A stretch of 64,000 bases of DNA from Promethearchaeota archaeon (GTDB lineage: Archaea; Asgardarchaeota; Lokiarchaeia; Sigyniarchaeales; SOKP01). The stretch is from positions 1-64,000 of the forward strand of contig JBHLNS010000014.1 in the NCBI GenBank assembly GCA_048941285.1, written 5' to 3'. The notes under the pieces are model-generated. The model was not told the origin of the DNA. It searched no databases and was given only the letters and a program-made list of their open reading frames with translations. Every line of letters starts with the position of its first letter. Position 1 is the stretch's first letter. Positions 1,648 to 57,426 of this stretch are shown here, one piece after another. A program made the translations under genes and the position numbers.

Positions 1648-1648
1648 C

Positions 1649-2431: not shown

Positions 2432-2448
2432 TTTTTAACAAAAAATTT

Positions 2449-3480
2449 CTATTCAAATCTATATTTGTAAATAAAATTTCTTAGAGGATGTTTAACAAAA
2501 TTCGTAGGGTTCCAATAACAGGGTTTAAAACAATTACAATATTCAAATTTATATTTATTTATTTTTTTAACTCTCTCTTTATGTGGTAATCTGATAAAAT
2601 CGTTAAATCTAATCGAAGTTTTAACATCTTCACAAAGCATCACTGTTCCATCATTATTAACAGCGTAATATAAATCACCTGCATCACATTTCCAGAAATA
2701 TTTATTTTGATACCATTTATTCATAAAATAATAATAACTATTAGGCGACATTAGTTGAAATCCTTGTCTTTTCAAATTTTGGATTACTTCTCTTAATTTA
2801 TTCATTGTTGATCTCTTCAACAATAATTCAGGACAGTAACTTCTATATTGATATTGTTCACTACGCCTTTTTGACGAATGCACTGGATCTATTGAAAATC
2901 GACAATCTAATTTGGTTCTAATCTTTTTAATCAGAGGAATAAGCTCTTTGATATTATTTTTTGTGTTTATTATATGAAAACTATAATCTATGCTTTCAGG
3001 GTATTTTTGTTTTATGTCTTGAAGTAGATTAATTAATTCTGGGTCATATTTCTTTGGAGTATATTCTGAATCTTTAAAACTATCTATACTTATACCCAAA
3101 AGAAAATATCCATATGATGCAAATTCTTCTAGTAAGTCCTTATTTAAAAGAGCTCCATTTGTTACTACATGAGTAAACATACTTAATTCTATACAATGCT
3201 TCAAAAGTTCCCCTAAATCAGGTCGAATTGTTGGTTCTCCACCATATATAGTAATAAATCGACAACCCTGATTATAAATTTGGGTTACTATATTTTTCCA
3301 TTCCTTTACTGAAATATCAGATTCATATTGACCTTTTGAAGTAGCACAATAATAACAATCAAAATTACATTTTCTAGTAAAAAAAATACTAACAAATGTA
3401 GGGCCATTTATTACCTTAAATATCCTATTTATATAGCTTATTCCTAAATTTCTTAGTATTCTATTTTTTATATTACTCAT
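2449..3480 (-). CDS. Radical SAM protein with twitch/SPASM-like C-terminus
   Basis: CNFDCYYC (CX3CX2C), GGEP, TNG, and C-terminal CDAG...DGTVMLC...CNC..PC. Confidence 0.9.
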   Translation of the reverse strand: MSNIKNRILRNLGISYINRIFKVINGPTFVSIFFTRKCNFDCYYCATSKGQYESDISVKEWKNIVTQIYNQGCRFITIYGGEPTIRPDLGELLKHCIELSMFTHVVTNGALLNKDLLEEFASYGYFLLGISIDSFKDSEYTPKKYDPELINLLQDIKQKYPESIDYSFHIINTKNNIKELIPLIKKIRTKLDCRFSIDPVHSSKRRSEQYQYRSYCPELLLKRSTMNKLREVIQNLKRQGFQLMSPNSYYYFMNKWYQNKYFWKCDAGDLYYAVNNDGTVMLCEDVKTSIRFNDFIRLPHKERVKKINKYKFEYCNCFKPCYWNPTNFVKHPLRNFIYKYRFE

Positions 3481-23398: not shown

Positions 23399-25330
23399 CT
23401 ATTGATCTGAAAGTAATGACTCTCTTTTTTCGTTAATCTCCGCAAGAAAAAGGTCCGCAAGTTTTAACCATTTGTTTTTTGATTCTAAATCGCTTATAAT
23501 TTTCCTTGTTAATTCCTTACCTCTCTGAAGATTTTGAATTGCTAATTCAATATTTTCAAGTGCTGTATAGCAAATTCCAATTTTAATATAAGTCTGGTGG
23601 ATAAACCACTCATTAGGATCAATTTCTATTGCTTTTTGGAATTCATTTATTGCTTTTTCATACTCTTTAAAGGTTATTAAAAGTTCTCCGTATGTGTCAT
23701 GATAAATTCCTTTTTCTGGTTCACTCTTTAAAAGTTCGCCAAGAATTTTCAAAGCTTCTTGTTTTTTACCTAAATAAGATAACCAATAAGCTTTATAATT
23801 ATGAAGAGAATTGTCTTCAGGATATTTTTCAACTAATTTTTCTATGATTTTTAATCCTGCTTCGAGATTTTTATCTTTTTTAAGTGTATATGCCTTTTTA
23901 ATCAAGATATCAATTTCTTTTTCAGGAAAGAGTGTTATCATATTTTCTAATACTTCTATTACATCTTTATATTGGTTGAAATAGAGTAGAATTCTAATTT
24001 TTGAATAATACAATTCATAATTATTTGGATTTAAGTTGATTTCGCGATTAATTTCTTTAATTTTTTCATTGTATTGAGATTCTAACATTTCAGCATCCTC
24101 TGATTGTATAATCTCTGCTATGTTCTGCCAAATTATTCCTTCTAGTTTATCATAAGCCTCTGTTAATTCCTTTTTTATCTCTATTTTATATGCTAAATAT
24201 TTTATATATTGAGGTAAAAATTCTCTCAATGATTCTTTGAAATCACCATGGAATAACACTTTACAAAGTTCTTCAAGAATCCCATCTATAATAGAATTTA
24301 AGCTCCCTGACTTTCCAAATTTCTCCAAATATTTGTTTGATGCAATATGCTCTTCGGTAATTGCTCTAAGTATCCTCTCTAATTTTTCATCTGAATGAAA
24401 ATAATAATATTTATTTGAAGAAATATCTAATTTAAAAAACTTTAAATCGTATAAGTCGCTTTCTACGATTTCATTTACCCAAAAATCAAGTATCCTCTTT
24501 TTAATATTAAAAAATCTCGAAAAATCTTCAAAAGACAGATAATCTGGATAAAAATTAGGATGATTCATTGATAAAAAAAGTAAAATTTTATGAAAATCCT
24601 CTTCATCTTTTAATATTGCGCTAACCTTTGAATAGTCTAATTTTAGCACATTATTCAAAAATCTAAATTTTACATGATCATCCGTTATGTTAAACTTATT
24701 AAAAAACTGTGAAGTTTTTGTGGTAATAGCATCAATTCTTTTTTTTTCCTCCTCCAATATTGTTTGTCTGTCCAAATTATATTGTTGTAGAATCCTTGAA
24801 TATTCTGATTTTCCTGATTGAGTTATTATGTATCTTTTATTTTCTTTGGTGAGAAATCCTTTTTGAATTAACATATTTAGGCTTTTTGATAATGAGGATT
24901 GATTAATTGAGAAGGGTTCTTCAAGAAAATCAGATCTTTTGCAAAAACCATTATTATAAACCATCCATAGAATCCAATGAGAATAATTCCTGCCCCTTTT
25001 CAAAATGACTTGAGGGGGATAACTTAATTTTCGTTTCTTTTTGCTTTCTTTTGATAGTACATGAAATCTCTGTTTTCCTTTCGGGGTTATTCTGTATTGT
25101 CCCCTAGAAAATTTCTCAATATATCCTTTGAGGATTAATTTTGTAAAATGACGCGATAATGTGGCAATAGGAATTTCAATAGGCTTTTGCTCAAAATCAG
25201 ACCATTCACAACTTTCATTATTAGCTAACATCCAGAGAATTATATGCTCGTAATTCCTTCTTTGTAGCTTCGAGGGGTTAAGAATCTCTTCTACCGGATA
25301 ATTTAACTGTCCCATTCTATATGAAAACAA
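23399..25330 (-). CDS. Tandem winged-helix plus TPR protein, putative transcriptional regulator
   Basis: Two repeats (RNY.H.ILWM...C..SDF...P..I....LS....L..KG......Y.IT..GK); C-terminal TPRs (YHDTYGELL, EFQKAIEIDP). Confidence 0.85.
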   Translation of the reverse strand: MFSYRMGQLNYPVEEILNPSKLQRRNYEHIILWMLANNESCEWSDFEQKPIEIPIATLSRHFTKLILKGYIEKFSRGQYRITPKGKQRFHVLSKESKKKRKLSYPPQVILKRGRNYSHWILWMVYNNGFCKRSDFLEEPFSINQSSLSKSLNMLIQKGFLTKENKRYIITQSGKSEYSRILQQYNLDRQTILEEEKKRIDAITTKTSQFFNKFNITDDHVKFRFLNNVLKLDYSKVSAILKDEEDFHKILLFLSMNHPNFYPDYLSFEDFSRFFNIKKRILDFWVNEIVESDLYDLKFFKLDISSNKYYYFHSDEKLERILRAITEEHIASNKYLEKFGKSGSLNSIIDGILEELCKVLFHGDFKESLREFLPQYIKYLAYKIEIKKELTEAYDKLEGIIWQNIAEIIQSEDAEMLESQYNEKIKEINREINLNPNNYELYYSKIRILLYFNQYKDVIEVLENMITLFPEKEIDILIKKAYTLKKDKNLEAGLKIIEKLVEKYPEDNSLHNYKAYWLSYLGKKQEALKILGELLKSEPEKGIYHDTYGELLITFKEYEKAINEFQKAIEIDPNEWFIHQTYIKIGICYTALENIELAIQNLQRGKELTRKIISDLESKNKWLKLADLFLAEINEKRESLLSDQ

Positions 25331-25956: not shown

Positions 25957-26131
25957 TTCATAAGGTTAAATCCTAATTTATTAAAATTATGTCTCACACA
26001 AAGTGAAATTAACTATAAAAACAGGTTAAATTCAAAATTTCTTTTCTTCACATTAAATTTAAAATGATAATTAGCTTAGTATTTTCATAAGGTTATAACC
26101 CAAATCTAGTAAATTAATGTCTCACGCAGAG
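25957..26131 (+). repeat. Imperfect direct repeat (~47 bp) of the upstream region and first codons of the TPR-longin gene
   Basis: 25957-26003 ttcataaggttaaatcctaatttattaaaattATGtctcacacaaag vs 26084-26131 ttcataaggttataacccaaatctagtaaattaATGtctcacgcagag. Confidence 0.8.
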
Positions 26132-28060
26132 CTAAACCAATTAACGAAAGCGGAATACTTTTTTAATACTTGCAAGATTGATGAGGCTCTTGAACTATTA
26201 AACGATGATAGTTTGTATGAGGGACTTGATCTTGAGCAGAAAAGATACTTTCAATTCCTTAAGGGCTTAATTCTTTTATATCGACATGATATCGAAGAAG
26301 CTATTCAGGTAGGTGAACAAATGCTAAAAGAAGGCCAAAAATATAATGATAATGTCTACTCGTTTGATGGACTATTTCTTATTATTGATGGACTGGTTAT
26401 AACTTATAAATTTGAGGAAGCAAAAATAAAAATTGAAGAAGCTGAAAATGTATTAGAACTTATTTCCACTAAATCTAGAAAAATTTTAATGCTAAGAGAG
26501 GTTCGTTTAGATTTATTAAGAGCTGCGATGAATATTGAGCTAAACAATTTTGATATAGCAGAAATGTACTTAAAAAAACTTTTTGAATCTCAAAAAGAAC
26601 TTGGAAATAGATGTGAATTTGCTAGGGCAAATTTGATACTGGCAAGGATTATGATGTGGGGAAAAAGTAGATTCGATCTTGCTTTGGACTGTTCTAAAAA
26701 AATATTATCAATAGCAAAGGAAATCAAATTTAACCATTACTGGATCGCTGTAGGTAATGCTGTTGCGGCGGTATCATATCAAAGCATTGGGGAGTTAGAG
26801 GATAGCTTAGAACATTGTATGAAAGTTGATGAAATTATTAAAAAATTTAAAAGTAATTTATATATTGCGGGTACATTAAATAATATAGGAAATCTCCATG
26901 CTGAGCTTGGCGATTATGAAATGGCTTTGCAATATTTAGAGGAAAGTTTAAAATTTTGGGAGCTCGATCCTTTACGAATAGAAGGTTGTATTGACAGTAT
27001 AATAGCTGTAGCTCTTAAAAAGGGAGATATTGTTCTTGCTCAAAAGTATTTCCAACGCTTAGAAAATATCTATAATCAAGCACCCAATAGTCAATACTGC
27101 GAATTTGTTTACAACTATAATAAAGCTTTAATTTTGAAAAATAGTTCTCGAATCAGAGATAAAGCTAAAGCTGAAAAATTATTTAAACGTATATTAAAGA
27201 CAGAAACTACAATTGCTGACATAAAAATTAACTCATATATTCATCTTTGCGATTTATTTTTTGCTGAATACCGTGTGAATAAGAATGATGAAGTTCTTGA
27301 AGATATTAATCAAAATATTTCTCAATTATTAGCTATTGCTGAGAAATCAAAGTCATATATAGTTTTCTGCGAAACTTTCATATTACAAGCTAAATTGGCT
27401 TTATTAACTTTTAATGTAAAAGCTGCCCGACGCTTTTTGACCCAAGCACAGAAGATTGCAGAATCATACGGGTTAAAACGACTAGTAATGAAAATTTCAA
27501 TAGAACATGATTACTTACTAAAAGAATTGCATAAATGGGAAATCTTTAGTGAATCCAATGCAAGTCTGACGGAGCGCATTGAATTAGCTCGAATAGATGA
27601 TCAAATGACAGACATGCTAAAAAAGCGATCAATGAAACTACCAATGATTTCACAAGAAGATCCTGTTATGATTTTAATCTTAACAGAGGGAGGCAATCTT
27701 TTGTTCTCTAAAAAATTTAAAATGGATTTTTCTTTTGAAGATGATATTTTAGGAGGTTTCCTAACTACTGTAAATTACGTTATTAATGAGGTATTTTCTG
27801 AAAGTCTTGATAGGGCGGTTTTTGGTCAATACACGCTTCTTATGATGCCCCTTAAACCATTTTTAGTGTGTTATGTCTTTAAGGGGGCTTCATATTACGC
27901 TTACCATAAGATTAAAAATTTTCTTGATTCAATTCAGAAGGATAATCTTATTTGGCAATCTTTGCAGAATTTTTTCCAAGAGAGTAAATCAGTTGAATTA
28001 CATAATATTCCAAAACTTGATTCGTTAATAAAAGAAATCTTTGTTGAGGAAAAAAATTAG
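26117..28060 (+). CDS. TPR-repeat protein with C-terminal longin-like domain
   Basis: TPRs (TLNNIGNLHAELGDYEMALQYLEESL); C-terminal MILILTEGGNLLFSK...DDILGGFLTTV longin-like fold. Confidence 0.82.
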   Translation: MSHAELNQLTKAEYFFNTCKIDEALELLNDDSLYEGLDLEQKRYFQFLKGLILLYRHDIEEAIQVGEQMLKEGQKYNDNVYSFDGLFLIIDGLVITYKFEEAKIKIEEAENVLELISTKSRKILMLREVRLDLLRAAMNIELNNFDIAEMYLKKLFESQKELGNRCEFARANLILARIMMWGKSRFDLALDCSKKILSIAKEIKFNHYWIAVGNAVAAVSYQSIGELEDSLEHCMKVDEIIKKFKSNLYIAGTLNNIGNLHAELGDYEMALQYLEESLKFWELDPLRIEGCIDSIIAVALKKGDIVLAQKYFQRLENIYNQAPNSQYCEFVYNYNKALILKNSSRIRDKAKAEKLFKRILKTETTIADIKINSYIHLCDLFFAEYRVNKNDEVLEDINQNISQLLAIAEKSKSYIVFCETFILQAKLALLTFNVKAARRFLTQAQKIAESYGLKRLVMKISIEHDYLLKELHKWEIFSESNASLTERIELARIDDQMTDMLKKRSMKLPMISQEDPVMILILTEGGNLLFSKKFKMDFSFEDDILGGFLTTVNYVINEVFSESLDRAVFGQYTLLMMPLKPFLVCYVFKGASYYAYHKIKNFLDSIQKDNLIWQSLQNFFQESKSVELHNIPKLDSLIKEIFVEEKN

Positions 28061-44749: not shown

Positions 44750-46693
44750 ATGAGTAATACTGAAAATCATCGGATTGGATACTATGCTTGTCAATGAGGT
44801 GTAAATATTAGAACGAAAGTTGATTGCGATGAATTAACTGAGTTCGTGAAAAATCTCGGTGATGAGATTATAATTTCAAAGAAAAATCCATTTCTTTGAA
44901 CTGATAATGCTCAGAATGAAATTATAGAAGATATCAAGGAAAAGAACTTAAATAGAATTGTGGCATCAGCTTGAACCCCACGTACACATGAAGTAATTTA
45001 TAGAGGTACTATTGCTAAAACAGATTTAAATCCATACTATTTTCAAATGGTAAATGTCCGTGAACACTGTTCATGGTGTACAGACAGCAAAGAAGAAGCC
45101 ACAAAAAAAGCGAAAATTCTAGTGAAAAGCGGTATCGAAAGAGTGAAGCGATTAGAGACAGTTCCCATCAAAACGGTCCCGGTTACTAAAGCTACATTAA
45201 TTGTAGGAGGTGGAATCGCAGGGATGAATGCAGCTTTAGATCTAGCAAATCAAGGTATTAAGGTTTATTTGGTTGAACAAAAAACCACTATAGGAGGAAG
45301 AATGTCTCAATTGGATAGAACTTTTCCAACAGATGACTGTGCAATATGAATTTGTGGTCCTAAAATGTTAGAGGTCAATAGAAATGAAAATATTGAATTA
45401 TTAAGTTTTAGTGAAGTAAAGAAAATTGAAGGATATGTTGGAAATTATAACGTAACAATCGAGAAGAAACCACGATATACAACAGACGAATGTAATGGGT
45501 GTGGAGCTTGTGCTGAAGTATGCCCTGTCTATACAACAAATTATTTCGACGAAAATTTAGGTGCTCGAAGAGCAATTGATATCCCCTTTGGTCAAGCAGT
45601 ACCATTTCTATACGATATAGATAGAAATGCATGTATAGAATGCTTCTCTTGTGTGGATGCTTGCGAATTAGATGCTATTGATTTTAGTCAAGAACCACAG
45701 GAACTAAATGCTGAGGTGGGAACAGTAATTATAGCAACAGGTTGGGATATATATGAACCTTTTGGTGAATACGGATATGGAGAATTCGAAAATGTTATCA
45801 CTCAAGTCCAGTTAGAACGAATATTGGCTCCAAATGGACCTCTTGAAGGTCATGTGCACCGAATTTCAGATAATAAGAAACCTAAGGAAATTGTATTTAT
45901 ACAATGTGTCGGAAGTCGTGAAACAGAAAGAACTTATTGTAGTGGTGTGTGTTGCATGCTTGCATTAAAAAATGGTCGATTGTTGCTAGAAGAATTTCCT
46001 GATGCAAACATTACAATTTGTTATATTGATATAAGAACTCCTGAAAAAGGATTCGAGGAGTATTATGATAGAGCTAAGGAAGCAGGTATTACTATGATTC
46101 GTGGAAAGGTGGGTGAGATCTCTGAAGATCCTGAAACTAAAAATGTGAAAGTACGTGTATATTCCTCTTTAACAGATAAGATTGTAATAATTGACGCAGA
46201 TTTAGTAGTATTGTCAACAGCAGCTCTTCCTTCTAAAGGTAGTCAGCAAATCATAGATATTTTAAATCTTGATACTAACGCATATGGATTTCTTACGGAA
46301 TCACATTTCGGTTTATTACCACAAGAAACAAAATCAAAAGGAATTTTTATAGCAGGGTTTGCTCAAGGTCCTAAAAACATTTCCTATTCTGTTTCTCAAG
46401 CTAGAGCAGCAGCTAGCAAAGTTGCTGAACTCACGGCGCCCGGAGAAATTGATATTGAACTCATCACTGCTGAAGTTGATAGTGAATTTTGTATTTCATG
46501 TCGACGATGTGAAAAACAATGCCCCAAAAATGCCATTAGGATTGAAAAAGAAACCGGAGCTTTTATTGATGAGATAAATTGCGATGGCTGTGGTATATGT
46601 GCTACATGCTGCCCTACTCAAGCTATTGATATAAGATACTATAGAGATTATCAGTTATTTGCAGAAATTGATGGTCTTTTAGGAGGTGATTAA
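44750..46693 (+). CDS. hdrA: Heterodisulfide reductase subunit A, selenoprotein with 4 in-frame UGA (647 aa)
   Basis: One frame from ATG 44750 (GAGGTGG upstream) through the tracked ORFs 45047 and 45365. TGA at 44795 (ACQ-U-G), 44897 (PFL-U-TD), 44972 (ASA-U-TPRTHE) and 45347 (DCAI-U-ICGPKM) align to Cys in paralogs (CHCG, NLYSCS, ASCTPRTHE, DCAICILAPK). Confidence 0.93.
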
Positions 46694-46699
46694 ACACAC

Positions 46700-47161
46700 A
46701 TGGTGTACAATTACAATTTAATTGTTTTTGCCTGTTTAAAGTGAGGATATAGTGCAGCTGATTTAGCAGGAGTTTCTCGATTAAAATATACTCCGGCGGT
46801 TAAAATCATAAAAGTAAGATGCACTGGTCGAGTTGATGTTAAACATATTTTCTATAGTATTCGTGCGGGAGCTGATGGAGTTATGGTTGTTGGTTGACGC
46901 CCAAACGAGTGTCAATTTAAAAATGGTAATTTCACGGCTCAAAGACATATAGATTTAGCAAACAGAATCTTGGAATCTCGTGGTTTCGGAGATCAAAGAA
47001 TAAACATGTATTGGTTAAGTGGAGCAGAGTCAGAGAAATTTGTGAAAAGTGTTGAAGATGCTTTAGGAAAGGTTGAGAAAGCTGGGCCAAATCCACTTAA
47101 CTTAGAAGAAACGTCACCAAAAATAAAACAAAAACAAGTAATAACTACCCCTGCAGAATGA
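46700..47161 (+). CDS. mvhD: MvhD/VhuD [2Fe-2S] subunit, selenoprotein with 2 in-frame UGA (153 aa)
   Basis: ATG 46700 after AGGAGGTGA; MVYNYNLIVFACLK-U-GYSAADLAG...RCTGRVD...VVG-U-RPNECQF. TGA at 46742 and 46895 match CNWCSY and GCHPGDC of the paralogs. Confidence 0.93.
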
Positions 47162-47214
47162 TTCTTATAAACAAATTCTAGTTATAAGAAGACTAACCTT
47201 GCAAAGGAAGGGGT
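47147..47214 (+). promoter_or_regulatory. Eukaryote-like SECIS element (AUGA...GA core)
   Basis: ATGA (47158-61), TTCTTATAA, loop ACAAATTCTAG, TTATAAGAA, GA (47191-92): perfect 9-bp stem with AAA in the loop. Possible lower stem ACCCCT (47147-52) / AGGGGT (47209-14). Confidence 0.85.
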
Positions 47215-47277: not shown

Positions 47278-48780
47278 ATGGTTCAGATTTCAAAAAATCA
47301 TAATTTTAATGGAATATCTCCAAAGATTTTGATGGATGCTACCTACAAAGCAGTTGAGAATTTTCAGATTAGAGCATTTTTTGAGGCAAAAGATGACATT
47401 TTGAATACTGGTAAATATTCTGAAGATGAATTTTATGAAATTCTGGATTCGATGATAGATGCTGAAACAGAACGTAAATTAGTGTTACAAACATTAACTG
47501 GTAAAGAACCGTTATTTTTAGATGAAATTGCTAGATTATTAAAAGATTTTCCTCAAGAAAACGCAATTCGAGATGTCATATATTTGAAAGAACAAGGATA
47601 TATTGAAGAACTAATCGAAGTAAAAAGTAAAACTGTCATTAAAAAAATCAAGGGAGAAGAGAAAGAAGTAGAGGAAAAAGAATATTTGTATAGATATCAA
47701 GTTAAGGATAAAGCTTATGATTTTATTGAGCATTTTTTTGAACCTGTTTCTATTGTGTTTGATTCTGAAGTATGTTGTCAGTGTGGTTGGTGCTCATCAA
47801 TTTGCCCAGTAAATGCAATTTCAGTGACAGCAGATACTTTAGAAATAGATGATGTAATTTGTATGAAATGTGGCTTATGTTATTCTGTTTGTCCGAGATC
47901 ATTTTCAATTGAACAAGCGGGCAAAAATATAAATAAACTTGATAAATCTTTAAAATTTTCAGAAGAAATTAACGGTTATATTAGTACTTATTCGGCTACA
48001 ACCATTAAGGATGAGATTAAAAAAGTAAGACAGGATGGAGGGATTGTAACGTCTCTCCTTGAATACCTCCTAAAAAATAAACTAGTTGATGCAATTGTAG
48101 CAGTACAACATTCAAAGGAATTATGGAAACCAGAGCCCATTATCATAGAAGATGTTAAAGATTTGTACAAAACTAGTGGAACAAAATATGCTAACGCCTC
48201 AACTTTAAGTATAATCGCTGATACTAAAAAGTACGAAAATATTGCGGTTGTAGGTGTTCCTTGCATGATGAACGCTCTCAAAAAGGGGATTTTATTCCCG
48301 AGCGGATTACCTTTTTTCAAGAACATTAGATATAGAATTGGGCTTTTTTGCATGGAATCCTTTCCCTATAACGGTGTTCTTAACTTAATTAAAGAACAAT
48401 TTAAAAAAGATTTTAATAAAGTTACAAAAATGGATATAAGTGGAGGTAAATTTATCATTTACTTAGATTCTGGCGAGGACTTAAACGTACCTTTAAAAGA
48501 AGTTAAATCATATGCTCGGCATAATTGCCATTATTGTGAGGATTTAACTGCTGACTATGCCGATATTTCTGTGGGATCAATTGGGTCCCCTAGCGGTTGG
48601 TCTACAGTAATTACTCGGAATAAAGAAGGTGAAAAAATCTATAAAGAAGCAATTGAGGCAGGGCTAATAGAATCTAAGAATTTAAAAGACGTTAAACCTG
48701 GACAACCTTTATTAGAAAGGATTGCTGGAACCAAAAGAAAAGATTGTAAACCTATTATATTGGAAAAAAAACAAGAATGA
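47278..48780 (+). CDS. FrhB-family F420-binding subunit with N-terminal winged-helix-like domain
   Basis: CCQCGWCSSICP, CMKCGLCYSVCP, QDGGIVT, VGVPC, IGLFCMESF, CHYCEDLTADYADISVGSIGS. Confidence 0.9.
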   Translation: MVQISKNHNFNGISPKILMDATYKAVENFQIRAFFEAKDDILNTGKYSEDEFYEILDSMIDAETERKLVLQTLTGKEPLFLDEIARLLKDFPQENAIRDVIYLKEQGYIEELIEVKSKTVIKKIKGEEKEVEEKEYLYRYQVKDKAYDFIEHFFEPVSIVFDSEVCCQCGWCSSICPVNAISVTADTLEIDDVICMKCGLCYSVCPRSFSIEQAGKNINKLDKSLKFSEEINGYISTYSATTIKDEIKKVRQDGGIVTSLLEYLLKNKLVDAIVAVQHSKELWKPEPIIIEDVKDLYKTSGTKYANASTLSIIADTKKYENIAVVGVPCMMNALKKGILFPSGLPFFKNIRYRIGLFCMESFPYNGVLNLIKEQFKKDFNKVTKMDISGGKFIIYLDSGEDLNVPLKEVKSYARHNCHYCEDLTADYADISVGSIGSPSGWSTVITRNKEGEKIYKEAIEAGLIESKNLKDVKPGQPLLERIAGTKRKDCKPIILEKKQE

Positions 48781-48791
48781 AATAATCCTAT

Positions 48792-50090
48792 TTGGATTTA
48801 ACTAAGGGAGTGAGATCTATAACAGAAACAGAAAAACAAAAAAAATCGAAACAAATTACTGAGGATACAGATTTTCTTATAAGAAAAATATATAAATCAG
48901 ATCTCAGAAATTTATTGAAAAAATGCTATCAATGTGCTCGTTGTTCTGGTGTATGTCAAATTAGTAAAGTTCAAAAATTTACTCCCAGTAGAATTATCCA
49001 GATGATCTTAGAAGGATTTGAAGATGATATAATTAAGAGCGGAGTGTTATGGGATTGTTTAATGTGCAATAGCTGCCTTCAAATGTGCCCCAAAGACATA
49101 AATTTTGCGGATATTGTACGAATTGCTAGATATAAAATGAGGATGCTAGATATTCAAAATCTTGATCGTTCTATTGCCCATAAAGGCATTTATACCATGA
49201 TGTCAGAATTAATGAGTCAAAATAATATTAAAATCGAAAGGCCTTTAGATTGGGTACTAAAAGGGTGCAAAATTTCAGAAAGAGGTAATATTTTATATTA
49301 TGTAGGGTGTTTACCCTTTTTTGGTTTTGAATTTGAAAATTCAACTTCTATAGCAGAAAGTACACTGAAACTTATTTATAAACTCGAGAAGGAGCCAATA
49401 GTAGTTCTTAAAGAAGAAACATGTTGTGGCCATGATTTGTATTGGGGTCAAGCAAAATTCGAAGCCTTTATTGACCTGGCTAAGAAAAATGTAAATAAGT
49501 TTGAAAAAGCAGGGGTTTCAACAATAATAACAGCATGCGCTGAATGTTATAGAACATTTAAAATTGATTATCCAAATTTATTTGAAGATTTTAATGATAA
49601 ATTTGAAGTTAAACATATTATTGAATATATTTTTGATAATTGGAAACAAGGTAAAGTTCAGTTTAAGAAACCAAATGAATCCAATGAGGCTATTCATTTC
49701 ACTTATCACGATCCTTGTAGATTAAGTAGGTATTTACCTAAAGAAAATAATATAATTGAAGAAGTTAGAGAACTATTTTATCATTTGGAAACAATAGGTT
49801 ACGTTTTTAAGGAAATGGAGCATAATAAAAAAAATTCATATTGTTGTGGAGTTAATTCTTGGATGAATTGTAATGAAAGATCCAAAGCTTTGCGATATAA
49901 GCGTCTTTCAGAAGCTAAAGCTGTTGGAACTAAATTGATCACCTCATGTCCGAAATGTAGAATGCATTTAAATTGCTTAAAAAAGGATTATGATGAGTTT
50001 GCTTCAATGGAAATAATAGATTTTTCAGATTTTCTATGCGATATAACAGATATAATAAATTCCGATAATAAGATTGAGGTTAAAGGATAA
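48792..50090 (+). CDS. HdrD-like Fe-S oxidoreductase (HdrC-like ferredoxin plus two CCG domains)
   Basis: CYQCARCSGVC, CLMCNSCLQMCP, YVGC, TCCG, TACAEC, YHDPC, YCCG, TSCPKC. Confidence 0.88.
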   Translation: MDLTKGVRSITETEKQKKSKQITEDTDFLIRKIYKSDLRNLLKKCYQCARCSGVCQISKVQKFTPSRIIQMILEGFEDDIIKSGVLWDCLMCNSCLQMCPKDINFADIVRIARYKMRMLDIQNLDRSIAHKGIYTMMSELMSQNNIKIERPLDWVLKGCKISERGNILYYVGCLPFFGFEFENSTSIAESTLKLIYKLEKEPIVVLKEETCCGHDLYWGQAKFEAFIDLAKKNVNKFEKAGVSTIITACAECYRTFKIDYPNLFEDFNDKFEVKHIIEYIFDNWKQGKVQFKKPNESNEAIHFTYHDPCRLSRYLPKENNIIEEVRELFYHLETIGYVFKEMEHNKKNSYCCGVNSWMNCNERSKALRYKRLSEAKAVGTKLITSCPKCRMHLNCLKKDYDEFASMEIIDFSDFLCDITDIINSDNKIEVKG

Positions 50091-53000
50091 TGGAGGGTTC
50101 TGTATTAGTTATTGGTGGTGGAATAGCTGGTATACAAACTTCTTTAGATTTAACTGAACTTGGTTTTAAAGTGTATTTAGTAGAAAAAACACCGTCAATA
50201 GGCGGCAGGATGGCTCAGCTCGATAAAACCTTTCCTACTTTAGATTGTAGCCTATGTATTCTTGCTCCTAAAATGGTGGAAGTGTTCAGAAATCCAAATA
50301 TTGAATTAATGACATATCATGAAATTAAGAAGGTTTCCGGAGATACAGGAAATTTTACTGTTTTAGTACTTAAAAAGCCTCGGTATATTGATGAAACAAA
50401 ATGTAAAGGTTGTGGGCAATGCAGTGAGAAATGTCCCAAAATAGAAGTACCTAATTATTTTGATATGAATTTAGGCAAAAGAAAATCTGTATACATCCCA
50501 TTTCCTCAAGCAGTACCTCCCGTATACTTAATCGATCCAGAATTATGCTTAAAGCTCACTAAAGGAGTTTGTGGTGTATGTGAGAAAGTTTGTAGCGCCG
50601 AAGCCATAGATTTCGAACAAAAGCCTCAAGAAATCGAATTAAATGTCGGAGCTATTGTAGTTGCTACTGGTTTTGATATGTTTGGAGAGGAACTAGCATC
50701 TCGATGGGGTTATAACTTCGAGAATGTGATAAATGGGTTAGAATATGAGAGAATTTTATGCGCATCTGGGCCATTTGATGGCCATGTTATACGCCCAAGT
50801 GATAAAAAGGAACCAGAAAACATTGCCTTTATTCAATGTGCCGGTTCAAGAGATTTACAGCAACGAGTTCCTTATTGTTCTAGTGTATGTTGCATGTATG
50901 CTGCTAAAGAAGCTATTATCACAAAAGAACACTCAGAGCATTCCAAATGTTTTGTTTTTAGACATGATATTAGAGCCTATGGGAAAAATTTCTATGAATT
51001 TACTCAAAAAGCTCAGGAAGAATATGGCGTAAAATACTTCCATACCAAAGTTAGTAAAATCATAGAAGATCCTGAAACAAATGATTTAATAATTCATTAT
51101 GAAGATTTACAATCTGGATTACTTAATAGTTTCCGTGCAAATTTAGTTGTTTTAGCAACACCGCTAGTTCCTTCTAATGGAACTAAAGTGTTAGCAAATA
51201 TCTTAGATATCAACTTAGACGAATATAATTTCTTTAAAGAAAAAAATCACTTTACAAAATCAATATCTTCAAAAAAAGGTATTTTCTTAGCTGGATTTTG
51301 TCAAGGTCCAATGGATATACCAGAAACTGTAGCAGATGCTAGTGGGGTAGCTTCCCAAGTAGCAGCTTTACTCAGCTCTGCAAAATACACCCAAATAAAA
51401 GAGAAAGTATTTGAAATACCAGAAAAAGAAGTTGATTTAACAGAAGAACCTAGAATTGGAGTACTGATCTGTCATTGTGGTATTAATATTGGTAAATATA
51501 TTGATATTCCTCAAGTTGTAGAAACTGTAAAATCATTGCCAAATGTAATTTTTTGTGAAGATAATTTATATTCATGCTCTAGTGATTCTCAAACAAGAAT
51601 TAAAGAAGTAATTAGTGAGTATAATTTAAATAGATTTATTGTGGCATCCTGTACACCAAGAACACATGAATCTTTATTTCAAGAAACTTGTCAAGAAGCT
51701 GGATTAAATAAATATCTTTTTGAAATGGCAAATATTCGCGATCAATGTTCCTGGGTTCACATGACAGAGAAGGATCTTGCTACTGAGAAAGCTATAGATT
51801 TAATTGAAATGACGGTTGCTAAATCAAGATTATTAAGATCGCAGCAAGAACCAAAATTATCAGTAATATCAGAGGCATTAATAATTGGTGGCGGTATCTC
51901 TGGAATGACTGCTGCACTGAATATTGCTAATCAAGGATATCCAGTTTATCTTGTAGAAAAAGAGAAGATTCTTGGAGGAATTTTAAATGATTTATATCTC
52001 TTATATCCAACTCAAGAAGATGCTTCAAACTTCTTAATAGAGACAATAGAAAATGTTGAGAAGAATAAAAAAATTCAAGTGTATTTAGAGTCTAGTGTAA
52101 AGGATGTAAAAGGATATCTTGGTAATTATCATGTCTCAATTATTAACTCCAAAAGCCAAGTAAATGAATTGAGTGTTGGAGTAATTATCGTTGCTACTGG
52201 GGCTCAAGAGTTAAAACCTCTAGGATTTAGTCAATACAATGATAATAACAACAATGTTATTACAGAAATGGAATTAGAAAAGCGATTGAATAATAAAGAT
52301 CACTCTTGGCTTGATAAAATTAAAAGAGTCACAACTATTTTATGTGTAAATGCGAGAGAAAAACAAGGAATTACATACTGTTCTAATATCTGTTGTGCAA
52401 CTGCCATTAAAAATATGAATATCTTAAAAGAGTTAAAATCAGATTTGGAAATGATTGTTCTTTATAGGGATTTTCAAATGGCTAAAAAAGAATTTGAAGA
52501 ATATCTTTTTGATAGAAGAAGAGATGCCATACTTCTAAGATACGATTTGACTAGACCACCAGAAATAAAAAAGATCAATAATAAATCTGAGAAATATGAG
52601 ATAAATGTATTTGATACGAATTTACAGGATATTATTACCTTTGAAACAGATCTAATTATTTTATCTCCACCCATGATTCCCTCAGACAATTCAGATTTAT
52701 TAGCAAAAATGCTTAAAGTACCTTTAGATAGACATGGTTTTTTCTTGGAGGCACATGCTAAATTACGACCAGTAGATTTTGCTACAGACGGAATATTTTT
52801 ATGTGGGTGTGCTCATTGGCCGAAGCATATTCAGGAATCAATCACGCAAGCAAATGGTGCTGCGGGGAGAGCGAGCAGATTTTTGAGCTCAAAGGATATT
52901 ATTTCCTCTGGGTTAGTAGCAGAAATTAATAGTGAATTATGCGTTGGATGTAAAGTATGTATGAAACTTTGTCCTTATAATGCTATATCTAAGAACGAGG

Positions 53001-53140
53001 ATAATATAGTAATTATAAATAAGTTGCTTTGTAAGGGATGTGGTGTGTGTGGTGCAAGTTGTCCGGAAAATGCTATAATTGTATATCATTTTACAAATGA
53101 GCAAATTCTATCAGAAATTATTGCTTATGGAGGAGAATAA
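50090..53140 (+). CDS. hdrA: Large HdrA-family flavoprotein with two FAD modules (Cys form)
   Basis: Two GGGIxG FAD motifs, DKTFPTLDCSLC, QCAGSR, CHCG, CTPRTHE, FFLEAH.KLRP, ferredoxin motifs. Confidence 0.92.
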   Translation: MEGSVLVIGGGIAGIQTSLDLTELGFKVYLVEKTPSIGGRMAQLDKTFPTLDCSLCILAPKMVEVFRNPNIELMTYHEIKKVSGDTGNFTVLVLKKPRYIDETKCKGCGQCSEKCPKIEVPNYFDMNLGKRKSVYIPFPQAVPPVYLIDPELCLKLTKGVCGVCEKVCSAEAIDFEQKPQEIELNVGAIVVATGFDMFGEELASRWGYNFENVINGLEYERILCASGPFDGHVIRPSDKKEPENIAFIQCAGSRDLQQRVPYCSSVCCMYAAKEAIITKEHSEHSKCFVFRHDIRAYGKNFYEFTQKAQEEYGVKYFHTKVSKIIEDPETNDLIIHYEDLQSGLLNSFRANLVVLATPLVPSNGTKVLANILDINLDEYNFFKEKNHFTKSISSKKGIFLAGFCQGPMDIPETVADASGVASQVAALLSSAKYTQIKEKVFEIPEKEVDLTEEPRIGVLICHCGINIGKYIDIPQVVETVKSLPNVIFCEDNLYSCSSDSQTRIKEVISEYNLNRFIVASCTPRTHESLFQETCQEAGLNKYLFEMANIRDQCSWVHMTEKDLATEKAIDLIEMTVAKSRLLRSQQEPKLSVISEALIIGGGISGMTAALNIANQGYPVYLVEKEKILGGILNDLYLLYPTQEDASNFLIETIENVEKNKKIQVYLESSVKDVKGYLGNYHVSIINSKSQVNELSVGVIIVATGAQELKPLGFSQYNDNNNNVITEMELEKRLNNKDHSWLDKIKRVTTILCVNAREKQGITYCSNICCATAIKNMNILKELKSDLEMIVLYRDFQMAKKEFEEYLFDRRRDAILLRYDLTRPPEIKKINNKSEKYEINVFDTNLQDIITFETDLIILSPPMIPSDNSDLLAKMLKVPLDRHGFFLEAHAKLRPVDFATDGIFLCGCAHWPKHIQESITQANGAAGRASRFLSSKDIISSGLVAEINSELCVGCKVCMKLCPYNAISKNEDNIVIINKLLCKGCGVCGASCPENAIIVYHFTNEQILSEIIAYGGE

Positions 53141-53918
53141 ACACTTGGTATTTAGACCGAAAATTTTAGGATTTTTATGTAATTGGTGTTCTTATGCTGG
53201 AGCTGATCTTGCTGGTGTTAGCAGAGTACAATATTCTCCTAATATTAGAATAATTAGGGTAATGTGCAGCGGTAGAGTTGATCCTATTTTTGTAGCTGAA
53301 GCTTTCTCAAAAGGAATTGATGGAGTACTTGTATTAGGTTGTCACCCTGGAGATTGCCACTATATTAGCGGCAATTATGAAGCAGAAATGAAAATGAATA
53401 TGTTAAGTAAATTATTAGATTATATTGGATTTTCTGAACGCTTTCGGTTAGATTGGGTCTCAGCATCCGAGGGAAATAGATTTGCCCAACTTGTAAATGA
53501 ATTTAATGAACTTATAATCAATTTAGGGCCTTCTCTAATTAATAATAAAAAATTAAAAAAACCGTTATCTGACGATTTTGATATAATTAAATCAGTATTA
53601 GCCGAGTCTAGAATTAGGACTTTAGTCAGTAGAGAAAGGATAATCACTACTGAGGGTAATGTATATAATGAAATAATATCAAAAGACGAATTTGAAGATA
53701 TTATTGATGATAGTCTATATAAAGAATTCATTCGTCATAAAATAATACAAAAAATTAAAAAAAAGAGCAAATCAGTTCCAGAAATATCTAAAGAGATACA
53801 AGTTAAGCCAAATGAAGTATTAAATCATATTATAACTCTAAGACAAAGAGGTTTAGTTGATCTTGATGAAATACATGAAGAAATTCCAACATTCAAATCA
53901 ATTAAGGAGGAAAAATAA
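53127..53918 (+). CDS. mvhD: MvhD-family subunit with C-terminal winged-helix extension (Cys form; ATG 53127 preferred to tracked start)
   Basis: LCNWCSYAGADLAG, VMCSGRVD, GCHPGDCHY, WVSASEG; C-terminal SVPEISKEI...LRQRGLV. Confidence 0.9.
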   Translation: MEENKHLVFRPKILGFLCNWCSYAGADLAGVSRVQYSPNIRIIRVMCSGRVDPIFVAEAFSKGIDGVLVLGCHPGDCHYISGNYEAEMKMNMLSKLLDYIGFSERFRLDWVSASEGNRFAQLVNEFNELIINLGPSLINNKKLKKPLSDDFDIIKSVLAESRIRTLVSRERIITTEGNVYNEIISKDEFEDIIDDSLYKEFIRHKIIQKIKKKSKSVPEISKEIQVKPNEVLNHIITLRQRGLVDLDEIHEEIPTFKSIKEEK

Positions 53919-56900
53919 TGGAAAAGGTTGGTGCTGTCTTAGTTGTAGGGGGAGGAATTGCTGGGATTCAATGTTCTATAGATTTAGCAGATTCAGGTTA
54001 TAAGGTTTATTTAGTCGAATCCACGACAAGTATAGGAGGTGTAATGTCTCAATTAGATAAGACATTTCCAACTAATGATTGCGCAATATGCATTCTTGCC
54101 CCAAAATTGGTACAAACAGGGCGCCATGAGAACATTGATATTTTGATAAATTCAACTATAAAAAAAATAGATGGAGAACCAGGCAATTTCATTATTGATT
54201 TAACTCAAAAAACACTATATTTGGATCAAGATAAATGTACTGGTTGTGGTCTTTGTGCTCAAAAATGTCCAATAGAAGCAATAGATACATTTAATAAAGG
54301 ACTTTCAAACAAAACAGCTATTTCTGTTAAATTCCCTCAAGCTGTTCCTTTAGTTTTTTCTATCAATAGAAATAAATGTATAGGTTGTGGTGTTTGCGAA
54401 GGGATATGTAAAGCTGAAGCAATAAATTATGCACTTAAAGATAAAGATATACGGCTTAATGTAGGGGCAGTCGTACTTGCAACTGGGTTTGATGAATACA
54501 ATCCAACTCCTCTAACTCAACTTGGTTATGGTAAACATTTAAATGTCATTACTAGTACTGAATTTGAACGGATATTGAGTGCAAGTGGACCACATGCAGG
54601 TTTAATACTCCGACCGTCTGATGGAATTATTCCAAGAAAAATAGCGTTCTTACAATGTATTGGTTCAAGAGATAAACAGTATGGTGTTGATTATTGTTCT
54701 TCTGTATGTTGCATGTATTCTACAAAAGAAGCAGTTATTGCTAAGGAACATATGAATATAGTAGAACCTACTATTTTTACTATGGATATTCGAGCATACG
54801 GAAAAGATTTTGATAAATATATTGAACGAGCAAGAGAAGAGTATGGTGTAAGATTTATAAGACGGAGAATATCTACAATTAAAGAGATTCCAGATTCTAA
54901 GGATCTAAGAGTATTTTACGAGACAGAAAATGGAAGAATTATTAATGAAACTTTTAACTTAGTAGTCTTATCAGTAGGAATGCGACCTAATAAAAAAGCA
55001 GAAGAAATAGCAAAAAAATTAAATATCGAATTAAATGAGTATGGTTTTTGTAAAACTAACCATTTTAATCCAGTAGAAACTTCGAGATCAGGAATTTATG
55101 TATGTGGAGCGTTTGCAGCACCAAAAGATATTCCAGAAACGGTTATCGAAGCTAGTGCAGCTGCAGGAAGTGTGAATGTTCTCCTTTCGGATGTGAGAAA
55201 TCAATTAATAGCTAGAAAACAACTTCCAGAAGAAATCGATGTATCTGATCAGCCACCTCGAATAGGTGTATTTATTTGTCATTGTGGAATAAATATAGGT
55301 GGAGTTGTCAACGTTCCTGAAGTGGTTGAATATGTTAAAACTTTGCCTAATGTAGTTTATGCCGAGCATAATTTATATACTTGTTCTGCAGACACTCAAA
55401 CTGGCATTAAAGAAAAGATAGAAATAAATAAATTGAATCGAGTTATAGTCGCTTCATGCACTCCAAGAACGCATGAACCTTTATTTCAAGAAACAATAAG
55501 AGAAGTTGGCTTAAACAAATATCTTTTTGAAATGGTTAACATTCGAGATCAATGTTCATGGGTTCACATGCATGAAGCTGAAAATGCGACTTTAAAAGCA
55601 AAAGATTTATTGAGAATGTCAGTAGCGAAGGCGAGACAACTAATTCCTTTACAAGAACAAGAAATTAATGTCATAAGTAAAGGTTTAGTTATAGGCGGAG
55701 GTGTATCTGGAATATCTGCTGCTTTAAATCTTGCTTCTCAAGGCTTTAAGGTCTTCTTAATTGAAAAGGAAGACTCTCTAGGAGGATTTGCTAAAAATAT
55801 TTATCGAACGCTTGAAGGTGACGATGTCCAAAAATATCTTAAGAATTTAATTGAAAAAGTTGAGAATAATCAACAAATTAAAGTCTTCAAAAATACTCGA
55901 ATTAATTCAATAACAGGATACATTGGAAATTTTACTACTAATATAAATTATGGAAAAAATAACGAAAATGTTGATCTTGAACATGGAATAATTATTGTAG
56001 CAACCGGAGCAGAAGAATATCACCCTAAAGAATATAATTATGGAAAGGATCATAGAATTATTCCCCAAACTGATTTTGAAAATCTTCTTTTCGCTACTCC
56101 AGATAAAATAAAAGAATTAAATTCAATAGTTATGATTCAATGTGTCGGCTCTAGAAATGAAGAACATCCCTATTGCAGTAGAATTTGTTGTTCCGAAGCT
56201 ATTAAAAATGCTTTAAAAGCAAAAGGAATTAATCCTAATTTAGAAATAATTATATTATATCGTGATATTAGAACCTATGGATTTAAAGAGAAATATTATA
56301 ATCAAGCAAGAGAAATTGGAGTATTATTCATTAGATTTGATGAAAAAAATCCTCCCGAATTAAATAGTAAAAATAAAAAGCTAAAGCTCTTAATAAATAA
56401 TCCTGATTTAGGAGAAATTGAGATAAATCCCGATATACTTATACTAAGCACAGGATTAATAGCACCTAGAAAAGAGAATGAAGATTTAGCAAAGATGCTA
56501 AAGGTGCCTCTTAATGAAGATAAATTCTTTTTAGAAGCCCACGTTAAATTAAGACCAATTGATTTTGCTACTGATGGTATTTTTTTATGTGGATGTGCTC
56601 ATTCACCTAAAAATATTAAAGAATCAATTACTCAGGCGAATGGAGCTGCAGCTCAGGCAGTCAAAATTCTTTGCTCTGAAAAGATTGTGACTTCTGGTCT
56701 TGTTGCTACTGTAATAGAAGAAAATTGCATCGGATGTGGAAGTTGTGTTGAGGTTTGCCAATTTAACGCTATAGAATTAATAGAGAAAGAAAGAACGTTT
56801 GAAGACTTTACTATTAAAATTAAGAAATCTCATGTTAATTCTGCTCTCTGTAAGGGATGTGGTACTTGTGGTGCTCAATGCCCTAATTCAACAATAGTTA

Positions 56901-56962
56901 TAAAACATTTTGGTTTTGAACAAATTAATGCAATGATTTCTGCTCTATTAGTCCAAAATTAG
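53918..56962 (+). CDS. hdrA: Large HdrA-family flavoprotein with two FAD modules (Cys form)
   Basis: Same architecture as 50090-53140: DKTFPTNDCAIC, QCIGSR, CHCG, CTPRTHE, QCVGSR. Confidence 0.93.
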   Translation: MEKVGAVLVVGGGIAGIQCSIDLADSGYKVYLVESTTSIGGVMSQLDKTFPTNDCAICILAPKLVQTGRHENIDILINSTIKKIDGEPGNFIIDLTQKTLYLDQDKCTGCGLCAQKCPIEAIDTFNKGLSNKTAISVKFPQAVPLVFSINRNKCIGCGVCEGICKAEAINYALKDKDIRLNVGAVVLATGFDEYNPTPLTQLGYGKHLNVITSTEFERILSASGPHAGLILRPSDGIIPRKIAFLQCIGSRDKQYGVDYCSSVCCMYSTKEAVIAKEHMNIVEPTIFTMDIRAYGKDFDKYIERAREEYGVRFIRRRISTIKEIPDSKDLRVFYETENGRIINETFNLVVLSVGMRPNKKAEEIAKKLNIELNEYGFCKTNHFNPVETSRSGIYVCGAFAAPKDIPETVIEASAAAGSVNVLLSDVRNQLIARKQLPEEIDVSDQPPRIGVFICHCGINIGGVVNVPEVVEYVKTLPNVVYAEHNLYTCSADTQTGIKEKIEINKLNRVIVASCTPRTHEPLFQETIREVGLNKYLFEMVNIRDQCSWVHMHEAENATLKAKDLLRMSVAKARQLIPLQEQEINVISKGLVIGGGVSGISAALNLASQGFKVFLIEKEDSLGGFAKNIYRTLEGDDVQKYLKNLIEKVENNQQIKVFKNTRINSITGYIGNFTTNINYGKNNENVDLEHGIIIVATGAEEYHPKEYNYGKDHRIIPQTDFENLLFATPDKIKELNSIVMIQCVGSRNEEHPYCSRICCSEAIKNALKAKGINPNLEIIILYRDIRTYGFKEKYYNQAREIGVLFIRFDEKNPPELNSKNKKLKLLINNPDLGEIEINPDILILSTGLIAPRKENEDLAKMLKVPLNEDKFFLEAHVKLRPIDFATDGIFLCGCAHSPKNIKESITQANGAAAQAVKILCSEKIVTSGLVATVIEENCIGCGSCVEVCQFNAIELIEKERTFEDFTIKIKKSHVNSALCKGCGTCGAQCPNSTIVIKHFGFEQINAMISALLVQN

Positions 56963-56991: not shown

Positions 56992-57426
56992 ATGAAAAGT
57001 CAACTGAAAAAGAAGGAAAAAGTTGTAAAGTTTAACCCAAACATTTTATGCTTTTGTTGTAATTGGTGTAGTTACGCTGGAGCAGATTTGGCGGGAGTAT
57101 CACGGTTTCAATATCCTTCTACTATAAGAGTAGTAAGAGTAATGTGTTCTGGTAGAGTAGATCCAGCTTTCATTTTAGAGGCATTTAAAGATGGAATTGA
57201 TGGCGTCATTGTAACAGGATGTCACATAGGTGACTGTCATTATTTAAAAGGAAATGAGTTTACAAAGGATAGGTTTGAACGCTTTCGTGAAATATTAAAG
57301 ATTTTTAATCTTGATAAAAGATTTAGACTTGAATGGGTAAGTGCATCAGAAGGTAAACGATTTGCTGAGGTTATTACTGAATTTACAGATGAAATTAAAA
57401 AACTAGGGCCATTACAAACAATTTAA
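56992..57426 (+). CDS. mvhD: MvhD-family [2Fe-2S] subunit (Cys form)
   Basis: CCNWCSYAGADLAG, CSGRVD, GCHIGDCHY, WVSASEG. Confidence 0.94.
   Translation: MKSQLKKKEKVVKFNPNILCFCCNWCSYAGADLAGVSRFQYPSTIRVVRVMCSGRVDPAFILEAFKDGIDGVIVTGCHIGDCHYLKGNEFTKDRFERFREILKIFNLDKRFRLEWVSASEGKRFAEVITEFTDEIKKLGPLQTI

Follow-up and report, generated by a model that had tools for sequence, protein, structure and literature searches.

An Asgard archaeal hdrA-vhuD gene pair with six in-frame UGA codons and a single candidate SECIS element

The hdrA reading frame and its four UGA codons

The DNA analyzed here (hereafter "the window") is a stretch of 64,000 nucleotides from a Promethearchaeota archaeon of the Lokiarchaeia (assembly GCA_048941285.1, contig JBHLNS010000014.1, positions 1 to 64,000 of the forward strand). 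It contains an hdrA gene with four in-frame UGA codons, followed by a vhuD gene with two more and by a hairpin that resembles the selenocysteine insertion sequence (SECIS) described for Lokiarchaeota, the lokiSECIS.

The hdrA gene (44750-46693, + strand) is a single frame of 647 codons and a TAA stop codon (46691-46693). TGA interrupts the translation at codons 16, 50, 75, and 200; neither TAA nor TAG occurs inside the gene, and the frame is unbroken. This agrees with the initial annotation, which had recognized one continuous frame where the open reading frame (ORF) track is split. ORF calling with translation table 11 yields two separate pieces, 45047-45349 and 45365-46693. At 29.5% G+C the window is AT-rich and TAA and TAG should therefore be common by chance, which argues that a frame of 647 codons with neither is coding.

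By sequence comparison, in which selenocysteine (Sec, U) was entered as Cys for the protein comparison programs, the gene belongs over its full length to the HdrA structural family. The five best PDB sequence matches are all HdrA (9sfi_A, 5odc_A, 8rvu_a, 8rvv_A, and 7bkb_A), with E-values from 5.3e-201 to 2.3e-159 and residues 3-646 covered. The match to 9sfi_A (E = 5.3e-201) spans residues 7-645 and that to 5odc_A (E = 5.4e-195) residues 5-644. HdrA models also rank top among the NCBIfam models. The Pfam domains Pyr_redox_2, NAD_binding_8, and FAD_oxidored fall at residues 146-242 (a flavin adenine dinucleotide (FAD)/Rossmann region), and the GxGxxG motif is present as GGGIAG. Pfam also detected two ferredoxin-type regions, one inserted and one C-terminal, and the protein has CxxCxxCxxxC cysteines at 248/251/254/258, 295/298/301/305, 581/584/587/591, and 611/614/617/621. 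The cluster cysteines of the thioredoxin-reductase domain (386/397/401/402) are invariant in all 74 full-length orthologs, a set that includes the window's own gene and spans 74-100% protein identity. The invariant N-terminal Cys set and the DCxxC motif appear as C14, U16, U50, U75, and C197-A-I-U200. The product would thus comprise the standard four domains: N-terminal cluster, FAD-binding thioredoxin-reductase-like, inserted ferredoxin, and C-terminal ferredoxin.

All four UGA codons fall at conserved Cys positions. Codons 16 (44795-44797, C-Q-U-G), 50 (44897-44899, F-L-U-T-D), and 75 (44972-44974, S-A-U-T-P-R) each align with Cys in all five solved HdrAs. Codon 200 (45347-45349, D-C-A-I-U-I) is the canonical HdrA Sec site, the counterpart of Cys197/Sec197 of methanogen HdrA; there 5odc_A has Cys and 9sfi_A has X (Sec). 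Exactly four cysteines of the N-terminal domain are invariant in the five solved structures, the equivalents of positions 14, 16, 50, and 75; that of C26 is Cys in two of the five and that of C107 in one. The motif pairs proposed from paralogs within the window hold for C-Q-U-G (CHCG), FL-U-TD (LYSCSS or LYTCSA), and SA-U-TPRTHE (ASCTPRTHE). The fourth, DCAI-U-I against DCAICI, is correct for the paralog starting at 53918, but that at 50090 reads DCSLCI.

The same four columns hold U or C, and nothing else, throughout the 74 full-length orthologs. All 74 have U at positions 16, 75, and 200; at position 50, 54 have U and the other 20 have C. None of these genes has a stop at a non-Cys column, the pattern that the initial annotation had named as contrary to its reading. 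Cys/Sec columns make up 32 of the 647, and simple arithmetic puts the chance of four independent UGA codons all falling on them at ~6e-6.

These data bear on the possibility that hdrA is a decaying pseudogene, or that its TGAs are assembly or sequencing errors. The table 11 split would suit such an origin, as would an additional TAA in one ortholog (G019/L044). Against it, every TGA lies on a Cys column, the frame has no other stop or frameshift, and the TGAs persist at the frequencies given above in many separate assemblies, at identities down to 74%. A DNA contig from a separate study (X2 record 8) also agrees: it matches 44770-45421 with 5 differences, none of those listed lying at the four UGA codons (107 differences are not displayed). 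We consider decay or error to be a practically negligible explanation, and the view in the initial annotation that random decay would not produce this pattern stands.

The source genome (3.55 Mb, 101 contigs, 94% complete) has seven full-length HdrA genes, plus several fused forms. Four TGAs occur in the present gene, two in each of two others, and none in the remaining four. Across 41 genomes (40 relatives and the source genome), 40 have a match at E <= 1e-150. Fourteen of the 24 other congeneric genomes have an ortholog with four TGAs (87-93% identity; one of these also has a TAA). The other 10 comprise one with a five-TGA gene, two with three-TGA genes (80% identity), one with a partial gene, and six with only a paralog (~50%). 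Counted by locus, these congeneric genomes contain 18 orthologs: 14 with U at all four positions (one of them has a fifth), two with three U, and two that are incomplete or broken. The three-TGA orthologs have Cys at position 50 and their TGAs in the same columns as here. HdrA paralogs of ~52% identity retain Sec at 16 and 200 only. A scan of public genome contigs recovered 80 loci at 74-92% identity, mostly titled as Promethearchaeota or Promethearchaeia metagenome-assembled genomes; this set and the congeneric genomes overlap (e.g., L036 is the same stretch as L053) and come from the same genome collection, so the two counts are not independent.

Some relatives depart from the four-Sec pattern. 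Five-Sec orthologs have an extra U at 301 (L070, L092, and L104; 3 of 74), 298 (L129; 1 of 74), or 614 (L045). In each case the extra Sec takes the place of a Cys within a canonical CxxCxxCxxxC motif of the inserted or C-terminal ferredoxin domain, an undoubted [4Fe-4S] ligand position. These variants may be listed in the supplements of Mariotti et al. (2016; PMC4989117) or Huang et al. (2024; PMC11227280), and we claim no novelty for them. A paralog at G002:C2:318050-319981, 52% identical to the present HdrA, also has four TGAs, and the four-Sec state may thus have more than one origin within HdrA. In ortholog L059, extra AT-rich sequence directly follows the U16-G-I codons and the frame exceeds the aligned part by ~49 codons; an insertion, a small intervening element, or a misassembly could account for this.

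The vhuD gene and the lokiSECIS

The vhuD/mvhD-like gene (46700-47161, + strand) starts six bases past the hdrA stop codon. It has 153 codons, ends in a UGA stop (47159-47161), and was assigned to the FlpD family by PF02662 (E = 4e-41; 140.3 bits against a gathering score of 22.3). UGA occurs in frame at codon 15 (46742-46744) and codon 66 (46895-46897), 51 codons apart, and both U positions are retained in every ortholog VhuD listed. We also compared the HdrA N-terminal domain with VhuD; the BLASTP E-value was 1.8, and we claim no homology between U16/U75 of HdrA and U15/U66 of VhuD.

The lokiSECIS (47158-47198, + strand) starts at the end of vhuD, and its AUGA includes the vhuD UGA stop codon. 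Positions 47162-47170 pair with 47182-47190 in a 9-bp stem, UUCUUAUAA with UUAUAAGAA, in which 9 of 9 pairs form. The stem encloses an 11-nt apical loop (47171-47181, ACAAAUUCUAG, ACAAA...AG) and is followed by GA. It forms in the minimum-free-energy (MFE) structure, with a fold z of -2.15. Every sequence and stem feature listed by Mariotti et al. (PMC4989117) for this element is present in the window. The element begins 2,363 nt downstream of the first hdrA UGA.

Of 22 loci, 21 have a motif of this shape at the homologous site; the remaining locus has no more than 350 nt available downstream. Within the 21 sequences the AUGA (A7, T8, G9, A10) is invariant, as is the loop-final G30. The loop has 11 nt in 19 and 10 nt in two, and starts with AAAAA in most orthologs. 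GA follows the stem in 17 loci, the window included, and AA in four. In the alignment 96.8% of cells are paired, a figure inflated by our choice of candidates with at least 8 of 9 pairs; the compensatory changes, found in 7 of the 9 pairs, are less affected. None of 500 shuffles did as well, and sliding the pairing partner by 1-3 columns lowered the pairing to 44-63%. As examples, the first pair occurs as U-A, A-U, and C-G, and the sixth changes from A-U to G-C, among orthologs and paralogs. Rfam at gathering thresholds gave no match in the window, and no model reached threshold at the lokiSECIS.

We also considered a bacterial-type hairpin directly after codon 16. The 66 nt folded there gave z = -3.27, with 1 of 200 shuffles as good. 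We rejected it as a recoding element because it is not kept in the orthologs: the 75 other sequences allow only 9-16 of its 18 pairs, and their MFE values range from -2.1 to -11.2 kcal/mol against -15.5 kcal/mol here. The 66 nt after each of the other five UGAs gave z values from -0.85 to +0.84.

Under the decoding model that we favor, hdrA and vhuD would be read from one transcript, and the single eukaryote-like SECIS that begins at the vhuD stop codon would direct Sec insertion at all six UGAs. HdrA ends in UAA and thus would not be read through. The UGA stop of vhuD lies within the SECIS core, and so is probably too close to be recoded, an argument made by Mariotti et al. (PMC4989117). Two metatranscriptomic runs of one study contain near-identical contigs over parts of the locus (15 and 18 of 30 bins). 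One RNA-library contig (X17 record 6; 46441-46732, 2 differences) spans the hdrA stop and the vhuD start, a slight hint that the two genes are transcribed together.

The source genome also has a second Sec-HdrA with two UGAs (L024, contig C67), encoded at 1411-3456 (- strand). A lokiSECIS-shaped element (~1359-1405, - strand) lies 11 nt after its stop codon. No vhuD follows; a convergent FrhB-like gene ends there. This locus looks like an exception to the constant adjacency of hdrA and vhuD/frhD that is stated in PMC4989117 and PMC11227280.

Selenocysteine machinery, the meaning of UGA, and neighboring genes

Elsewhere in the genome we identified a SepSecS gene (472.6 bits, over the cut-off) and, 72 nt from it, a tRNA-Sec gene (59.4 bits, over the cut-off) that ARAGORN also reports as tRNA-SeC with anticodon tca. 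An EFSec-like gene lies ~4 kb further on the same contig (239.7 bits, below the NCBIfam cut-off of 242.25). SepSecS, tRNA-Sec, and the EFSec-like gene form a small Sec-machinery cluster within ~6.5 kb (contig C52:86888-93350). A PSTK-like gene scored 153.9 bits, below its NCBIfam cut-off of 290.5. Two tandem selD genes (contig C39:20541-22670) each contain one in-frame TGA, as in Sec-containing SelD. Multiple selD copies are unusual for prokaryotes and common in Loki- and Thorarchaeia (PMC11227280). The machinery that the initial annotation had listed for checking is therefore present above cut-offs for tRNA-Sec, SepSecS, and SelD, whereas the PSTK and EFSec matches are sub-threshold. Together, tRNA-Sec(UCA), PSTK, SepSecS, SelD, and EFSec would make Sec and deliver it.

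UGA might instead be reassigned across the genome, or be read by a near-cognate tRNA (Cys or Trp). TGA is indeed rare as a stop in the window, where the 40 ORFs of at least 200 aa end 33 times in TAA, five in TAG, and two in TGA, and Cys at the UGA positions would give a working protein. Yet UGA still terminates genes, vhuD included, and the two TGA-ending ORFs imply that the code is not reassigned. Further, the in-frame UGAs are confined to Cys columns of known selenoprotein families, the genome has a dedicated tRNA-Sec, SepSecS, and SelD, and the conserved SECIS would be purposeless. We regard reassignment or near-cognate reading as very improbable.

In combination, these results make us highly confident that hdrA and vhuD are a functional Asgard (Promethearchaeota/Lokiarchaeia-type) selenoprotein pair, in which six UGAs (four in hdrA and two in vhuD) would specify Sec with the use of one SECIS. 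The proposal of a multi-selenocysteine HdrA in the initial annotation is thus borne out by the alignment of UGA with Cys, the U-or-C columns, the covarying SECIS, and the Sec machinery.

Several points weigh against this conclusion, among them the pairing-based choice of lokiSECIS candidates and the sub-threshold PSTK and EFSec scores given above. Sec insertion is inferred from sequence. No RNA-library contig at >=99% identity covers any hdrA UGA, and the RNA-library contigs, which are short, may derive from carried-over DNA. A single hairpin would have to recode UGAs 0.26-2.4 kb upstream across two cistrons, and no SECIS-binding protein is known in Asgard archaea according to PMC4989117. Finally, the HdrA product falls short of the NCBIfam equivalog cut-offs (762.2 against 1100 bits for HdrA2, 603.7 against 1400, and 603.5 against 1300); the models have 762-777 positions, of which the match takes in just ~1-650. 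We therefore file the protein as an HdrA-family bifurcating flavoprotein and not as a proven reductase of the coenzyme M-coenzyme B heterodisulfide (CoM-S-S-CoB).

Further related genes follow on the + strand. Domain models identified a ferredoxin plus FrhB/FdhB-like gene of the F420-binding type (47278-48780), which is one of the two TGA-ending ORFs and has its next in-frame stop 6 codons on, and an HdrC/HdrB-like fusion of ferredoxin and two CCG domains (48792-50090). HdrA models and alignment then revealed a Cys-only fused double HdrA of 1016 aa (50090-53140), with DCSLCI in module 1, and a second of 1014 aa (53918-56962), with DCAICI in module 1. Each is followed by a Cys-type MvhD (FlpD) gene according to domain models, at 53079-53918 (with a C-terminal helix-turn-helix-like tail) and 56992-57426. 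In both fused proteins module 1 lacks the N-terminal domain and has the DCxxC cysteines, and module 2 has the N-terminal cysteines and lacks those of DCxxC. The initial annotation had called these genes two Cys-only HdrA paralogs; its Cys alignment was right, but both are fused double HdrAs of ~1015 aa whose motifs are split over the modules. Two other ORFs (23399-25330 and 26117-28060) were considered as Cys-only paralogs and rejected as not HdrA (14-24% identity, poor alignment).

The same complementarity was reported for fused and tandem HdrAs of anaerobic methanotrophic archaea and Moorella by Chadwick et al. (2022; PMC9012536). In their account, Cys197 of one HdrA unit binds the N-terminal cluster of the other unit.

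Proposed selenols at the N-terminal cluster and known systems

As relayed in PMC9012536, the N-terminal [4Fe-4S] cluster is bound by cysteines of the N-terminal domain together with Cys197 of the partner HdrA. Of the five invariant Cys positions around this cluster, four are occupied by Sec in the present HdrA as judged by alignment, a point that goes beyond the cited parts of Mariotti et al. (2016). Three of the four invariant N-terminal cysteines are Sec; thus any three of the four that served as ligands would include two or more Sec, and U200 would bring the selenolates to at least three of the four cluster ligands. This estimate depends on second-hand ligand information. The cluster lies on the low-potential branch from the bifurcating FAD, where it is the first acceptor in flavin-based bifurcation.

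One view of the selenols is that they are static ligands of this cluster, which would then be a cubane held by three or more Fe-Se(Cys) bonds; this would tune the potential of the low-potential branch. It accords with the finding that only the equivalents of 14, 16, 50, and 75 are invariant N-terminally in the five solved HdrAs, and with the ligands reported in PMC9012536. Relatives also place Sec at undoubted ferredoxin ligand positions (301, 298, and 614). On the other side, in Methanococcus maripaludis Sec197 is seen bonded to a Cys and is not described as a ligand in that state (PMC13518236), and Mariotti et al. (PMC4989117), writing before any HdrA structure, held that the Sec sites are not cluster ligands. 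We give static ligation somewhat less than an even chance.

A second view is that the selenols form a redox-active relay, in which C197-x-x-U200, and perhaps C14-x-U16, would alternate between selenol/thiol and selenylsulfide beside the N-terminal cluster and would thereby carry electrons between it and FAD, much as in ferredoxin:thioredoxin reductase. The 2026 cryo-electron microscopy study of M. maripaludis (PMC13518236) describes density joining Sec197 to a Cys between cluster A3 and FAD, reads it as a selenylsulfide, and calls its role unresolved. A preprint on class II benzoyl-CoA reductase (bioRxiv 10.64898/2026.04.10.717634) reports that the HdrA-like BamE has a Cys59-Cys62 disulfide at 3.4 A from the equivalent cluster, and that a Sec neighbors the [2Fe-2S] cluster of the MvhD-like BamF. 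In the present HdrA, U16 and U200 sit in CxU and CxxU pairs, and Mariotti et al. proposed "multiple catalytic Cys residues" (PMC4989117). However, no Cys that could act as a partner lies near U50 or U75 in the sequence, and the preprint states that the observed distances preclude direct exchange. A relay is also compatible with ligation, as a selenol could be a ligand in one state and Cys-bonded in another. We put this view forward tentatively, as one that falls a little short of probable.

The initial annotation had proposed a largely selenolate-ligated Fe-S center. This is reasonable, given the invariant cysteines and the report of Cys197 as a ligand, but the two 2026 papers, in the parts cited here, favor a redox Cys-Sec or Cys-Cys pair at DCxxC/U. 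Our own proposal is a near-complete selenium shell on the N-terminal cluster, a cubane of three or more Fe-Se(Cys) bonds that possibly switches to selenylsulfide bonds in turnover. The five-Sec relatives, with Sec in canonical ferredoxin motifs, lend it support, and we offer it as possible while still short of likely. In the literature searched we found no statement linking the multi-Sec sites of Lokiarchaeota to the N-terminal cluster, and supplements may cover such positions. A natural HdrA with Sec at four of five cysteines round this cluster is a ready-made probe for the role of Sec197. The remaining interest lies in this structural reading of the Sec positions and in the five-Sec variants, both of which are possibly contained in the supplements of earlier papers.

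The decoding model itself follows the literature, and nothing tested in the window departs from it. In Mariotti et al. (2016; Mol Biol Evol, PMC4989117), individual Lokiarchaeota HdrAs have as many as four Sec, drawn from five positions that all fall on conserved cysteines; the one near residue 200 is always among them. A two-Sec VhuD, with its Sec residues 50 codons apart, always lies directly downstream, and the pair shares one common SECIS for up to six UGAs. The HdrA stop is always UAA or UAG, and the SECIS may supply a stop codon through its AUGA. The initial annotation knew of no described HdrA with this many Sec, yet one had been reported. The multi-Sec HdrA with VhuD and a common SECIS is a correct rediscovery of a feature already described for Lokiarchaeota in 2016. 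Huang et al. (2024; PMC11227280) later reported 227 Sec-using Asgard genomes and hdrA-frhD pairs with one common SECIS. In the passages cited here, a 2026 review (PMC13188914) gives families with "2-3 Sec residues" and makes no mention of a four-Sec HdrA, which may be a reason why the feature is easily missed.

The pair is the most Sec-dense prokaryotic redox enzyme pair known, and the window holds a clean, well-conserved example. It also represents the longest-range SECIS action proposed outside eukaryotes, on six UGAs up to 2.4 kb upstream in two cistrons, by an element whose form is held to be ancestral to the eukaryotic SECIS.

With the Lokiarchaeota HdrA.n-VhuD.n pairs, the present locus has in common the multi-Sec HdrA with its canonical site at ~200, the adjacent two-Sec VhuD after a short spacer (6 nt here), and the UAA/UAG stop of hdrA. 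It also shares the single SECIS after vhuD (AUGA, 9-bp stem, 11-nt loop with an A-rich start and final AG, then GA) and the up to six UGAs over ~2 kb. We find no essential difference; the overlap of AUGA and stop codon occurs at vhuD here and was reported for VhuU.1 in the cited part of Mariotti et al. (2016).

The HdrA of M. maripaludis (PDB 9sfi; Nature 2026, PMC13518236) resembles the present protein in its four domains, the DCxxU Sec, the adjacent two-Sec VhuD, and the N-terminal [4Fe-4S] cluster A3. It differs in having one Sec, with Cys at the three N-terminal positions. The M. maripaludis system also uses an archaeal GAA_A-type SECIS and reduces CoM-S-S-CoB, which is not an established substrate in Asgard archaea. 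HdrABC-MvhAGD of Methanothermococcus thermolithotrophicus (PDB 5odc) is all-Cys, with Cys at each of the four positions that are Sec here, and its Cys197 of the partner subunit is reported, as relayed in PMC9012536, to bind the N-terminal cluster. BamE and BamF of the Geobacter metallireducens class II benzoyl-CoA reductase (bioRxiv 10.64898/2026.04.10.717634) combine, as here, an HdrA-type bifurcating module with an MvhD-like Sec adaptor, and the CxxC pair of BamE by its N-terminal-type cluster resembles the present DCxxU. In contrast to the present pair they are bacterial, the passages cited describe Sec for BamF and no multiple Sec for the HdrA-like subunit, and BamE is a fused double HdrA like those encoded at 50090-53140 and 53918-56962.

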